Below are positions 15,579 to 62,030 of a stretch of 64,000 bases of DNA, piece by piece. Source of the stretch: Potamilus streckersoni. Its lineage: Eukaryota. Position 1 is the stretch's first letter, and each line of letters starts with the position of its first letter. The notes beneath the pieces were generated by a model. The model searched no databases. It was given only the letters and a program-made list of their open reading frames with translations, and was not told the origin of the DNA. The DNA lies in the NCBI GenBank assembly GCA_016746295.1, contig JAEAOA010000900.1, positions 2,554,807 through 2,618,806 on the forward strand, given 5' to 3'. Both the position numbers and the translations under genes were made by a program.

Positions 15579-16110
15579 CTGGCACAAAATGTAACAACAT
15601 TAAAATTTCAAAATACACTAATAACTCTATTAAAGTCATAACAAGGAATTTACATATTTCATATAAAAACTTTCATTATGTGGAGAAGTTTCTATGAGAC
15701 CTAATAAGGTTCAGAGAAAATGTCATCCCCACACCCCCTTTCAGGAACATTTTTAAATGTGAATTGCAAATATTACCAACATGCACAAAAGCCAAATATT
15801 TGAGGTAAACAGAAGTACCACTTTAATTAGCAGCAGTTTGAGATGTTAATAAATAAAGCAAGTCAAAAGGAAGTATCCTTCTTAGCATTTTAAAAATGTT
15901 ATAGTATGCAAATTTCTCATTCTGTAAGCAACTTATATTAGCCTATGGTTGCTGTCAAGCAAATTAAAACATCAGAGGAAAGACTCTAACAATCTCATGA
16001 ACTTTTCTGCATGAACTGTTCACCTATTAGTTGAGCACTTGAATCTTACATTTTAACATTAAATAAGCATATATATATATATATATATATATATATATAT
16101 ATATATATAT

Positions 16111-16370
16111 ATATATATATATGCAATAAACTGACCACGAACAGTGCGAAACCAGTAACTAACTAGCCTGAGCGCTTTCGACTCTTAATGAGTCGTTTTC
16201 AAAGGCAAATACAAAACATATATAAGACAAACAAATAAACACAAAAATGTTGTGTTTGTAAACCTCTACATGGCTGTCACCACATGGGTTAAAACTATAA
16301 ATACAACCAGCTTGTATAGACTTGTTGCGGATACTGAAAACGGTGTATAATTCCCTAAAAGTCTACAAGC
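16111..16370 (+). repeat. (TA)n-associated interspersed repeat, copy A. It is about 220-260 bp and starts gcaataaactgaccacgaacagtgcgaaaccagtaactaactagcc...
   Basis: A (TA)n run at 16072-16120 lies immediately 5' of it. The element has three more copies in the window. Confidence 0.75.
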
Positions 16371-17043
16371 CAAAGCAACATCTATTTTTACTTTTTTGTA
16401 CAATTATTTTTAACGCAGATTATATCCTGGATATTTGATTCTATACCGGTTATTCTTATAGTAAAAATTGAAGGATACTAAGAAGATTTAGAAAAAGTTA
16501 AATTCTAATAGTGCATAGTTTTCTTTTTCTAGTCTTCTTGGTTTAGACCGCTTGGTTTCAATGTTCTAAGGCGGCATATCCAGTATGATTCCTTTTCCTT
16601 CCTGGTTTCGGAACTCCAGCTGTTAACAACCACTTCCGTCTCTTATTGAATTAGAACATAAAATTGTTTTTATACCATTTTAACATATAAATATTTTTAT
16701 ACCATTTTAACAATCACAAAAACAGACCTGTAAAAAATATGGCAAAGTAAATGAAAATTATATATCAGCCTGGAAAGATGGATTCTGTTGGGTGTTTTTT
16801 CCAGCCAACTGTAATAGATTTTAACATAGAGACATTTTATGTGGCATGGAAGAAAATATGCTTGCAGTAATACTGTACCAGAGGTCCTGTTCTTTACTGA
16901 TTTACAATATGTACCTTTGAACAAATTTAAGATGTTAACATCATTGAATTTTTGACAATGATGACATTGCAGTCTCTGTCATATTAGTACCATTAATGAA
17001 CAAGACAAAAGATTTGAATTAAGTATAACGAGTCACAACTTAC

Positions 17044-17135
17044 TCTCCATTGATATCCTCACAATCCTGAACTGCTCTGAGGACCAGGGCCTCTCCAGTC
17101 TTTATGATGACAGGATCCACTATCTTGACTATTTT
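17044..17135 (-). CDS. MVP: MVP exon: KIVKIVDPVIIKTGEALVLRAVQDCEDINGE. It ends in phase 2.
   Basis: The acceptor is cacatctattttcag|AAA and the donor is GGAGA|gtaagt. Compare human [34 protein letters not shown]. Confidence 0.8.
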
Positions 17136-18264
17136 CTGAAAATAGATGTGTAATTCTGTGAAGTTATGCTGACTCCCGTCATCCACATCTACTGGACACA
17201 TACGATAGCAAGCCTTCTTTAAAACTTTGAAAGAAAAATACACAAGTTTTACCTGTGTAATCATGCCATCATGGAAACCAAAACTTCAGTCCCAATCTGA
17301 CCATGATATAAAACTCTGAAGCTGAGTTTGATACTGAATTTTCACATTTAACCAATCAAGCAATATTGGTAAAAAAAATACAAAATCCTTTGTCATTGGT
17401 TAAAATAAGATCTTGAGTTAAAACCTGGACTTCAAAGTTTTTAAGATTTGCAGGCCCTAAGCTTGAGATTTTTATCTGACCAATCATATTTTGCTTTTGA
17501 AAGTAACTTCTGGCAGGCTAGGAGAAATATTTAAACCTCAATCTACAGCTCAAGAGATTTACAGTATCCAGGCCAGATTTGGTGGGGAAATCTATCATTC
17601 TGGTTGCAATGAATATGTATAAAAACCAACATTCAGCAACTGAGGTGGAAATAGTTAACTGGAAGGAATGAAGGATTTCAAGTAATGTATCTCTGTGTCT
17701 AACTTCCTTGTAGGTAATCTGTAAGCATGATTTTCCTATGATTTAGTAACAAGAAGTTTCTAATAAAACTGTTTCATTATACACCAAAATAGGTGATTTT
17801 GTCTAACTGAAAAAGCTGGACAATTTAAAGACTAGGGACTGCATTTTGCATTTTACTGTAACATTAATGTCATCTTTAACATTTCCATGTGTAAAAGCTG
17901 ATAGAAAAATTTGTTTAAATTAAAGGTATTGCTGCTGTTCTCTGAAAGATCCAATTATCATCCCTAGTGTTAAGATTATAGATAATCTGCTGAAAATTTT
18001 GGCTATCTTTTGAAACAACTGCTGTTCTTTAAGTGGTCTAATTATTCTATAACAGCTGTTGCCATTGATTTTGTAGTTATAAGAGTAAAGACCTGCTCAA
18101 TTATTGACATTTTAAGATTTTACAGAAGTGAAAATTTTCACTTTGACAAAGGTATATGAAAAAGAGGATTGTCTGTGATGAAGTACGTTCACATATTTCA
18201 TATTAAGATTTATACAAATTGTTGAAGAATGTAGCTTTCCAGAATTAAACAAAAATTGCCATAC

Positions 18265-18492
18265 ACTGTAGGGAGTTGGCATATACATGAGAGGTCCCTC
18301 CAGCTGCCATCTGTCTCCAGCTTTTCGAGATACTCCATTCTCATCATCATGATCAAGGACAGCTTCTAGTTGTATTGCATGGTTAGCTCTCACTACTGGC
18401 AGTTTGAGGATAGCAGGGGAATAGTTGTTGGACTTTTTTCCAAAATCTGTGGCATTTTGTAAAAACTCCCCTGGATAGAGAGGGAATGGCTC
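18265..18492 (-). CDS. MVP: MVP exon, 76 codons: EPFPLYPGEFLQNATDF...ANHAIQLEAVLDHDDENGVSRKAGDRWQLEGPLMYMPTPYS.
   Basis: The acceptor is tgtctgtttcag|GAG and the donor is AGT|gtatgg. The exon aligns to human MVP DPFPLYPGEVLEKD...[37 protein letters not shown]. Confidence 0.85.
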
Positions 18493-18976
18493 CTGAAACA
18501 GACAAAAAGTTGTGTAGATTAGCAGTTCTCAGATTCAACTGAAATGTTTTACAACCTCCTATACAAGATAGTGTTATAAATGAAGAATCAGTTATCTCAA
18601 CATCTTAAGGGTCTTCTTCCTCAAAATTCAGTGCTCAAAGATACTGTAAATTCACATCCCTGTCATAAAAAGATTTTTCATTCAATATTGCTATCAGATG
18701 AAACTACATTTTTCCTGTCTCTTTCCTTCTGCAACAAATACAGAACTAGAGCTGATGGATGTATCTCTAAAGACCAAACTCGCTACAAGGAGAATTCAGG
18801 GGCCATAACTCCTATAAATGATATAAGGAATATTAGAAAGCCAACTCTTTAAAAGACTCAATATAAAGGTTGATGAATAATTTGGTTGAAATCAAATATT
18901 TCTAAAAATGGTTATGTCATGGAAACCAAAACATGGAGGAAAGGCTATATGGGGCCAGGACTGTTCAAAATAATAT

Positions 18977-60006: not shown

Positions 60007-60199
60007 TCAAACTTTGAAATATATGATTCGGTCATATTGCTTTGATATTGGATAAAAGTGGGACAAGGGTGTTTATTTACTGTTGTTTTATTGTTAGGGA
60101 GCCAGTTCAAAGATCTTTAGGATTTAGAGCCTTTGAACTAGTTTTTGAACATATTGCCCGTGGAACATTCAAGTTGTTAAATGAGAAAGTTCTTTGACT

Positions 60200-60490
60200 T
60201 GAGACTGCTCAAGTGGTCTAGTGGTTAGAGCGTCCGCCTCAAATGCGAGAGGTCAAACCCTGGCCGAGTCACACCTAAGACTTATAAAAATGGTGCTAAC
60301 ATAAAAATGGTACTAACAGTTGTCTCGCTAGGAGCTTAGCATTATGGGATTAGTGTTATAAATGGTCGACCTGGTGATTGGGTGAGACATGATGCTACAT
60401 GTTTGTGGGATGATGTGCTAAACATCTCTTTAAACTGACACATGGCAGACATCGCAGCGATATGACTGAAAATGTTTTACAGTTATATTA
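60200..60490 (+). mobile_element. SINE family 1 copy in plus orientation, followed by a (CA)n(CG)n tail.
   Basis: The head is tggtctagtggttagagcgtccgcc... It truncates the integrase-like ORF upstream. Confidence 0.8.
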
Positions 60491-60495
60491 AAACT

Positions 60496-60541
60496 TAAAA
60501 TCACACACACACACACACACACACACACACACGCGCGCGCG
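60496..60541. repeat. (CA)n followed by (CG)n at the SINE tail.
   Basis: Read directly: cacacacacacacacacacacacacgcgcgcgcgcgcgcgcg. Confidence 0.9.
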
Positions 60542-61699
60542 CGCGCGCGTCTTTCAAACGAAGATACAGAAATTAATCCTCTCGACTATATTTCTATTTT
60601 ACGGGGACAATAAACAAAAAGTGACTGGAGTTCACCATGTATTCTTGTACCCACCCCCAAAAAAAGAAACGATAACACTTTTCGTATGCGCACTGGCTAC
60701 AAAACAGTGAATAGTGTGACCAATACAGGTTCATTTCCATTGTCAAGAATTGATGACTGCGTTGATAAAATTGGAAGTGCGCCTCATGTCACCAAATTTA
60801 CCTTTTGAAAGGATTCTCACAAATTCCACTGATGGAAAAGTTAAAGGAAATTTCGGCTTGATATTATCGGAAATTTTGTTCCAACTTTTCCATAACTGAC
60901 ACTAGGGAGGATACAGTCTTCGTTAAACACACACACACAGCCATTCACAAGTAGAATTATCCTTTGCAGCCGACACATTTTCTATTCAAAACTTTTCTAA
61001 ATTTTCTTAGTAGTCTTCAATTACTGCTATAAGAATAAAATATCCGGGATATAATCTGCGCTACATAAATGTACACAAAGTAATAGATGTGGCTATGGCT
61101 CATGTTTTCTATGTGAATGATTTATAATTTCTAACCTGACTGTGACCAGAATGACACTAATACTGGCATCCTCTTGCACCTTTCATGCTTAACGGACTTT
61201 CTATACTAACAAGGAACCATAATCCGTACACTATGATCCAATTTATTTCCATCGGACAACATAATGACGTAATTCATCATATTCGGTAACTGCCGAATAA
61301 TTCCAAAAATGACCGTAACGTTGAGTTTGGAATTATATTCCTTTGCACACATGAACATATTAATGAAACCGCTTGTTGAATCCACGTGAAAGACAATTTT
61401 TGTGTTTTCATTCTTTTCCTTTGTTTGATTCATCACGGTATATCAGAAGCAGACGACATATGTATGTACATCTTTAGTCGCGCATACACCCCTTTGCTGA
61501 AAATTGACTGGTCCAGGAACTGGAAATGGGTATTAAGCATGTCAGTCTATCATATTGAAAACTTCCGTTAAGCATGAAACGCGCAGACGATAACCGTGTT
61601 ATGGCCATTCTACTCACAGTCTGGTTAGAACATATAAATCAATTAATGAATTGACTAAGTTCTTTGCACTTTTTATCAAATTAAAGGTTTCCGTTGTGG

Positions 61700-61860
61700 T
61701 GGTGGTGGTGGGTTTACAAACAAACGTTTTAATTGACTCTGACTATAGTTTTGCACTGTTCGTCGTCAATTTATTGCATTTATCTCAATCAATCCCTGAC
61801 ACACGTGATACCTTGCTGGATCCAGTGTTCATGAAACGGCTGTTATTAGCGTTTTGACAA
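61700..61860 (-). repeat. (TA)n-associated repeat, copy D. It is reverse-oriented and internally deleted.
   Basis: It contains the 5' segment ...cactggatccagcaaggtatcacgtgtgtcagggattgattgagataaatgcaataaattgacgacgaacagtgc... and abuts the 170-bp (TA)n run at 61861-62030. Confidence 0.65.
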
Positions 61861-62030
61861 ATATATATATATATATATATATATATATATATATATATAT
61901 ATATATATATATATATATATATATATATATATATATATATATATGTATGTATGTATATATATGTATATATATATATATATATATATATAAATATATATAT
62001 ATATATATATATATATAAACAACCATCAAC
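61861..62030. repeat. Long (TA)n microsatellite with TATG and TAAA interruptions.
   Basis: Read directly. Confidence 0.95.

Follow-up and report, generated by a model that had tools for sequence, protein, structure and literature searches.

Penelope-like elements (PLEs) are retroelements that are often truncated at the 5' end. Pseudo-long terminal repeats (pLTRs), inverted partner copies that are themselves 5'-truncated and a tail on one side only have been described for them, and their abundant 3' ends are often catalogued as unknown repeats (PMC8557442). The simple repeat (TA)n is the preferred target of the Naiad and Hydra PLEs (Craig et al. 2021, PMC8557442), a preference that has been linked to a CX2-5CxxC-type linker and that was earlier hypothesised for Neptune elements (PMC8557442). 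Hammerheads are also found in PLEs, and both a U3-A8 variant and a palindromic helix III have been reported for them (PMC4209133). Here we analyse a stretch of 64,000 nucleotides from Potamilus streckersoni (GenBank assembly GCA_016746295.1, contig JAEAOA010000900.1, positions 2,554,807 to 2,618,806), referred to as the window and numbered from its first letter, in which four interspersed repeats, copies A to D, adjoin (TA)n arrays. Judged from sequence comparison, these repeats are very probably dead-on-arrival 3' ends, truncated on the 5' side and joined to (TA)n, of an autonomous PLE that encodes a C-terminal GIY-YIG endonuclease preceded by a CX4CxxC linker of the Neptune/Nematis type.

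We used a 23-nt core pattern of the repeat, allowing at most one mismatch, to scan the window, which is AT-rich eukaryotic DNA (32-40% GC) rich in long dinucleotide arrays. The pattern matched four times, at the four copies named in a preliminary description of this DNA, and did not match in any of 100 shuffles. A blastn search with the longest copy found no further copies within the window. Nine arrays of at least eight TA units are present, together making up about 1% of the sequence, and five of them adjoin the PLE family. Each of the four oriented copy ends is no more than 5 bp from the edge of an array, for which the chance probability is about 5e-13. Thus, within the window the repeats form a dispersed mobile-element family with a genuine link to (TA)n, as had been proposed. 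The four loci are those first reported, but their extents had to be redrawn (Table 1); the bounding of copy B by (TA)n on both sides is retained.

The parent element was found through an exact-pattern scan of metagenome contigs, which gave a single match, L001; scans of viral contig and genome contig collections gave none. The window-type repeat in L001 continues unbroken into a 489-codon open reading frame (ORF) on the opposite strand with Pfam matches to RVT_1 (1.2e-8) and GIY-YIG (1.2e-5), and the far end of the contig holds the repeat again, in inverted orientation. A protein search yielded P0001, a full-length ORF of 844 amino acids that is 96% identical to the L001 ORF. The same search gave about 2,900 homologues, the nearest named ones being uncharacterised bivalve proteins, and the 90%-identity cluster includes a protein from the unionid mussel P. 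streckersoni itself. The precomputed domains of P0001 are RVT_1, GIY-YIG, HTH_animal and DUF8422. By inspection, a DKG motif (...KPADKGSAVVV...) lies upstream of the reverse transcriptase (RT) core, and the GIY-YIG core carries CxxC...H...H (CCHH; ...VIYLITCKICGLQYVGETEKLHKRINLH...). The linker CGDKRCKTC (CX4CxxC, of the CX2-5CxxC type) is found upstream of GIY-YIG in both P0001 and the L001 ORF.

Metagenome and JGI/Logan contigs carrying the parent element are 88-98% identical to the window copies. Blastn, tblastn and translation place all four copies in colinearity with the 3' end of the P0001-type element, and all four are 5'-truncated. Each consists of the end of the ORF and/or part of a 3' untranslated region (3'UTR) of about 0.5 kb, with its 3' terminus joined to (TA)n. 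Copy C is 98.5% and copy B 97.5% identical to contig L002. Copy A is 87% identical to L001 and 80% to L003 by blastn, and its coding remnant aligns in tblastn with P0001 residues 814-844 at 93.5%; these 30 codons were the sole coding sequence detected when 134 PLE proteins were compared with the window by tblastn. Because the repeats are colinear with an ORF encoding RT and GIY-YIG, and because copy A keeps the final codons, we read them as 5'-truncated 3' ends of an autonomous PLE. The features of such elements are present across the family: a single ORF with RT and C-terminal GIY-YIG, DKG and CCHH motifs, the CX2-5CxxC linker, (TA)n flanks and complex insertions with 5' truncation, among them inverted head-to-head partner copies in L001, L005 and L007 and also in a relative, L010. 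The sense strand is therefore opposite to the one assumed in the preliminary description, which had the array at the 5' end of each copy: the (TA)n adjoins the element's 3' end, and the ends that vary result from 5' truncation.

Copy D lies on the strand opposite to A, B and C and is rearranged. Its two parts are split by a 524-bp insert (61118-61641) and about 100 bp of rearranged sequence (61642-61745), and the middle of the 3'UTR, including the hammerhead, has been deleted or rearranged. The insert has inverted ends of about 79 bp (61118-61196 and 61564-61641, 80% identity) and looks like a DNA transposon resembling miniature inverted-repeat transposable elements (MITEs). A candidate fifth fragment past the array of copy D (62018-62085) was rejected, as its alignment score was 19.5 and shuffled sequence averaged 17.9 and reached up to 25.5.

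The 3' termini of the copies, compared in alignment A2, take two alternative forms. In the long form a fixed end, ...CCATATGATTTGTATTCTT, is followed by TA repeats in copy C, L001, L002, L003 and L005, and copy D ends at nearly the same point. In the short form, found in copies A and B and in the independent contig L007, the last ~90 nt are missing and (TA)n is joined after ...TTATTGCAT(C)TAT. The long terminus is about 139 nt past the hammerhead site described below; the short terminus, at an internal site reading ...GCAUCUAU..., is about 47-50 nt past that site. TA runs of 3.5 to 78 units are carried by all nine visible 3' ends in the family (copies A-D, L001, L002, L003, L005 and L007). Copy B is closer to the long-form L002 than to the short-form copy A, to which it is 91.9% identical. 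The short-form copies are therefore not a clade; the short end arises recurrently and was not inherited from a single master copy. The three junction positions of the preliminary description do exist, but they are not all truncations: two are the alternative 3' termini and the other is the 5' truncation point of copy B.

We also noted that copy C (at 29830) and the inverted partner in L005 (at position 56) have their 5' truncation point at the same nucleotide. In the sense direction this point reads CTTGTAGAC / CTCATAGAC and forms the 5' arm of a possible hairpin (CTTGTAGAC...GTCTATACAAG), with the 5' end of copy B at the 3' arm. The number of cases is two or three, so chance could explain the agreement.

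The conserved core of the preliminary description is the antisense of a PLE-type minimal hammerhead motif. The sense strand reads UUGAAAA-A-GACUC-AUUAA-GAGUC-GAAA-GCGC-U(U/C) and then, across the predicted cleavage site, AGGC, with GCCU just upstream. This is the layout of a type-I hammerhead with a 1-bp helix III, a palindromic loop and a U3-A8 core. The alternative of taking the antisense CTGACGA...CGAAAC as the hammerhead box was rejected, since it lies on the wrong strand and is without helices. A hammerhead descriptor of our own design was run on the window, on 100 shuffles and on related contigs. In the window it matched copies A and B only, and it had no match in the shuffles. It also matched every intact copy in L001, L002, L003 and L005 and the 3'UTRs of four related families (L008, L009 with two copies, L010). 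Across five families, helices I and II and the palindromic loop (GCGC, GUAC, GCGCGC) differ in sequence by compensatory changes that preserve the pairing. This comparison used the parsed descriptor output in place of formal pair counting, because the MAFFT alignment A3 mis-registers helix II in one family. An Rfam search of the window at gathering thresholds gave no hammerhead or other family, and at E<=5-10 on copy C, L001, L003, L008 and L009 it gave no hammerhead and only spurious microRNA matches to TA runs. Rfam misses all of these motifs, even those that have a canonical CUGAUGA box.

We extended the comparison to relatives, taken as long ENA contigs encoding proteins 52-56% amino-acid identical to P0001. 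The 3'UTR ends in (TA)n in all of them (L008, both copies in L009, L010 and L011). The distance from hammerhead to array falls into two groups. It is 41-58 nt in copies A and B, both L009 copies and the inverted partners in L008 and L010, and about 130-139 nt in L001, L002, L003, L005 and the sense copies in L008 and L010. Copy C, whose degenerate motif the descriptor does not match, has the long terminus by alignment. The short junction in L010 falls where the long form has an internal (TA)3 run. The insertions in L008 and L010 consist of (TA)n, an inverted copy with the short end, a sense copy with the long end and again (TA)n, in agreement with what has been published for PLEs, where a 5'-truncated partner lies in inverted orientation and just one end has a tail (PMC8557442). 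Separately, the unique DNA outside two neighbouring (TA)n arrays in L009 (2849-2924 and 3463-3539) forms an inverted repeat of 95% identity, which points to a rearrangement between PLE copies or to a further element associated with TA.

Table 1. Copies of the PLE family, their (TA)n arrays and hammerhead-type motifs in the window, with TA runs at the long terminus in related contigs
Feature	Position	Strand	Description	Basis
Copy A	16123..16621	-	5'-truncated PLE copy, ~500 bp rather than 260 bp	blastn, tblastn, translation, alignment A2
Copy A, coding remnant	16529-16621	-	last 30 codons and stop, NSWSSETRKEKESYWICRLRTLKPSGLNQED*	translation
Copy A, 3' end			short form, ...CAGTTTATTGCAT-(TA)n, after 3'UTR	alignment A2
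(TA)27 array	16069..16122		3' end of copy A	TRF and sequence
Copy B	25923..26126	-	5'-truncated PLE 3'UTR fragment, ~200 bp	blastn, alignment A2
Copy B, 3' end			short form, ...TTATTGCATCTAT-(AT)n	
(TA)17 array	25889..25922		3' end of copy B	TRF and sequence
(TA)35 array	26127..26196		5' truncation point of copy B; also directly after 3' end of neighbouring LINE fragment	
Copy C	29494..29830	-	5'-truncated PLE 3'UTR	blastn, alignment A2
Copy C, 3' end			full long-form terminus, ...CCATATGATTTGTATTCTT-(TA)n	
(TA)n array	29445..29493		3' end of copy C, past long terminus; distal part imperfect	TRF and sequence
Copy D, 5' part	60939..61118	+	3'UTR from just past stop codon; matches L003 2895-3096	blastn 81%
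Copy D, 3' part	61746..61857	+	long-form terminal ~110 nt	blastn 87-88%
(TA)~78 array	61861..62017		3' end of copy D	TRF and sequence
Putative hammerhead, copy A	16170..16202	-	box UUGAAAA, helix II GACUC/GAGUC, GAAA, loop GCGC, UC cleavage site, helix I AGGC/GCCU	descriptor scan
Putative hammerhead, copy B	25973..26005	-		descriptor scan
Putative hammerhead, copy C	~29632-29664	-	degenerate (box UUGAAAU, one helix I mismatch)	sequence
L001			TA run past long terminus is (TA)5	
L002			TA array past long terminus runs to contig end	
L003			TA array past long terminus runs to contig end	
L005			past long terminus merely TATATAT, then unique DNA	

The best-supported reading of the link to (TA)n is microsatellite targeting, although the evidence on whether the array is target or tail is mixed. 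Among the solo copies, the 5' junction is visible in six, and in three of these (copy B and both L009 copies) it directly abuts long (TA)n, far above the background TA coverage of about 1%, and insertion into pre-existing arrays is favoured because of this. Of the two possibilities raised in the preliminary description, insertion into TA repeats is thus kept, and seeding of (TA)n by the element's own sequence is not needed, since the 5'-junction arrays of copy B and the relatives fit insertion into arrays that already existed. The anatomy of the copies is observed directly; for the enzymology we infer a scheme from the PLE literature. The GIY-YIG endonuclease and the zinc-finger-like linker would nick (TA)n DNA, and the exposed TA 3'-OH would anneal to UA-rich RNA at or near the 3' end of the transcript, either at the terminus or at the internal UAU site. 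The annealed TA end would then prime reverse transcription (target-primed reverse transcription). Incomplete copying would produce variable 5' ends, and priming by both strands of the self-complementary (TA)n would produce head-to-head inverted partners with a tail at one end only.

Several points weigh against this account. No (TA)n adjoins the 5' junction of copies A, C and D, nor could a target-site duplication be recognised in them (by eye for A and C), and these junctions give no support to insertion in the middle of an array. In the composite insertions of inverted and sense copies both outer (TA)n arrays adjoin 3' ends, which fits an element-borne tail equally well. The extra copies from outside the window all come from metagenome, Logan or ENA contigs, many of which break inside (TA)n. 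The PLE tail in the literature is 30-40 bp, against a variable segment of ~90 nt between the two termini here. The choice between Neptune and Nematis is a provisional one, made on motifs and not on phylogeny, and the PLE-type minimal hammerhead motif, a putative ribozyme, is detected by no Rfam model.

The array could instead be made by the element, as a 3' tail that is either element-borne or synthesised by the RT, such that each insertion creates a new TA locus. Read-through transcripts ending in (UA)n, or reiterative telomerase-like copying, could be the source of such a tail, and PLE RTs are the sister group of telomerase (PMC8557442). Copies A, C and D carry (TA)n solely on the 3' side, each array of the L008 and L010 composites adjoins a 3' end, and more than half of the TA arrays in the window adjoin this one family, all of which speaks for a tail. 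However, long (TA)n is seen at the 5' junction of three solo copies (copy B and both L009 copies), the tails vary from 3.5 to 78 units with merely TATATAT in L005, and the literature treats (TA)n as the target. We therefore consider this explanation unlikely, with an appreciable chance of being right, and note that tail and target are not mutually exclusive. Seeding after insertion, in which the terminal TATATAT (and the internal ...CATCTAT...) would be a proto-microsatellite later expanded by replication slippage, is improbable. It would suit the termini of L005 and L001, with just 3.5-5 TA units, and the position of the short-form junction at an internal TAT-containing site, but it demands independent expansion to 14-78 units in every window copy and leaves the (TA)n at 5' junctions unexplained. 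Loss of the terminal ~90 nt would also require recombination between two arrays, recurring alike in several lineages and families.

The earlier reading, that the repeat is a non-autonomous Helitron-like or MITE-like carrier or targeter of TA microsatellites, now has almost no probability. Helitrons insert at AT dinucleotides, and the copies are short (200-500 bp) and mostly non-coding, as this reading would have them. Against it, they are colinear with the 3' end of an autonomous element with an RT and GIY-YIG ORF, copy A retains 30 of its codons, and distal ends that vary beside proximal ends that are fixed are the pattern of a retroelement. No terminal inverted repeats, TC...CTRR ends or Rep/helicase were found. 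A Helitron or Helentron was rejected on the fixed sense-strand end ...GTATTCTT-(TA)n, the variable other end and the RT and GIY-YIG of the parent ORF. A short interspersed nuclear element (SINE) or other non-autonomous retroelement was rejected because the 5' ends differ, the alignment of the copies with the autonomous element extends over their whole length and part of copy A is coding; a tRNA scan and an Rfam search of the window gave no hits, and hence no SINE head with an RNA polymerase III promoter. Thus, this is a PLE family that marks and splits TA microsatellites, and not a Helitron-like carrier.

The paired termini (about 50 and 139 nt), conserved across families 52-56% identical to P0001, could reveal a specific integration mechanism, twin priming, an idea that we put forward as speculative and doubtful. 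The two strands of a nicked (TA)n target would each use the same RNA as template, with the first priming at the terminal UA tract and the other at an internal UAU. The inverted partners in two relatives (L008 and L010) use the short terminus. If twin priming were true, arrays would be left at both outer ends, and PLEs would be both a significant generator and a significant consumer of bivalve TA microsatellites.

A fragment of a long interspersed nuclear element (LINE) lies next to copy B (26197-26700, minus strand). It is a 5'-truncated 3' end whose 3'UTR of about 36 nt runs straight into the (TA)35 array, and the C-terminal part of its ORF has the motifs ...WQASWNDAVNNKLHAIKPTLGEW... and ...IGHPYLTHSYLL...C...FTVKHFMLEC.... 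Either this LINE family likewise ends in or targets (TA)n, or the LINE tail was the insertion site of copy B. A LINE/SINE partnership was rejected, as the 3' end of the LINE is not similar to that of the repeat.

The remainder of the window holds host exons and other repeats. A major vault protein repeat exon (about 18463-18700, minus strand; Pfam Vault, 1.6e-12) and two exons of an Arf-like GTPase (52830-53040 and 54440-54680, minus strand; Pfam Arf, 2.5e-9 and 1.8e-13) are present, and the PLE copies therefore lie in or between genes. A tRNA-like SINE family is represented at 31161-31518, with related copies at about 19999-20169, 23940-24249, 30970-31287, 57109-57412 and 60213-60515. It has the head ...GTGGCCTAAGTGGTTAGAGCATCTG...GGTTTTAACCCCAACC... 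and includes a 180-bp tandem duplication of 94% identity; arrays of (GA)n or (CA)n border several copies, and none of the copies received an ARAGORN or Rfam call. A second dispersed family of about 240 bp occurs at 18991-19228, 48417-48654, 33776-33982 and 12934-13034, two of its copies being 94.5% identical in opposite orientation. A dispersed repeat pair of about 590 bp is 75% identical (53325-53895 and 58682-59268), and a decayed integrase at 59415-60006 (plus strand; rve, E=0.005) is probably a relic of a long terminal repeat (LTR) retrotransposon. Two near-perfect palindromes, of 86 bp at 95% (39859-39944) and 146 bp at 84% (40201-40346), adjoin 23/46-bp tandem repeats present in both orientations (38280-38386 and 39691-39820) and may be the ends of another element.

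The known target preference of PLEs is unchanged by these copies. They matter in practice because automated pipelines would label such 200-500-bp fragments 'unknown repeat', and they should be masked as PLE 3' ends. The flanks of TA microsatellite markers beside them will be multi-copy, which is known to hamper marker design in bivalves. The bimodal distance between hammerhead and (TA)n, together with the recurrent short terminus, offers a small testable handle on the poorly understood integration of PLEs.

Microsatellite-specific insertion is also known among non-LTR retrotransposons, in Dong on (TAA)n and Kibi on (TC)n. As proposed for the element described here, they use target-primed reverse transcription at a simple repeat, probably aided by pairing of the RNA 3' end with the repeat. 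They differ in having an apurinic/apyrimidinic (AP) or restriction-like (REL) endonuclease and a LINE-type RT, and no GIY-YIG, hammerhead or inverted partners.

The putative hammerhead resembles the PLE minimal hammerheads (Cervera & de la Pena 2014, PMC4209133) in its type I topology, the bulged base 5' of helix II, the U3-A8 covariation replacing C3-G8 and a helix III of 1 bp whose loop is palindromic, a feature implying that it would act as a dimer. It differs in that Rfam covariance models miss it. With Naiad and Hydra (PMC8557442) the family shares (TA)n at insertion sites, indiscernible target-site duplications and abundant 3'-end fragments of the kind that automated annotation leaves unnamed. 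Naiad, however, has an N-terminal endonuclease and is without a canonical hammerhead, whereas the endonuclease here is C-terminal; Hydra lacks CCHH and has DKT for DKG and a CxCX5C linker, whereas the element here has CCHH, DKG and CX4CxxC. The Neptune-type endonuclease-positive (EN+) PLEs (Arkhipova 2006; PMC8557442) have the same single ORF with a DKG RT, a CX2-5CxxC linker (here CGDKRCKTC) and a CCHH GIY-YIG, the same frequent 5' truncation and inverted head-to-head partners, and likewise a hammerhead motif in the terminal region, which here is putative, and ends set in (TA)n. They differ in that the linker found here is common to Nematis too, so that the clade is named from motifs, in the direct pLTRs, of which none were seen in our contigs, these being too short to show them, and in the length of the one-sided terminal extension. 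This family thus adds to an already known kind of element a member that is new or at any rate has no name yet, the (TA)n preference of linker-bearing PLEs having already been published, and the sole mildly new point that it adds to the described systems is its conserved pair of alternative 3' termini.

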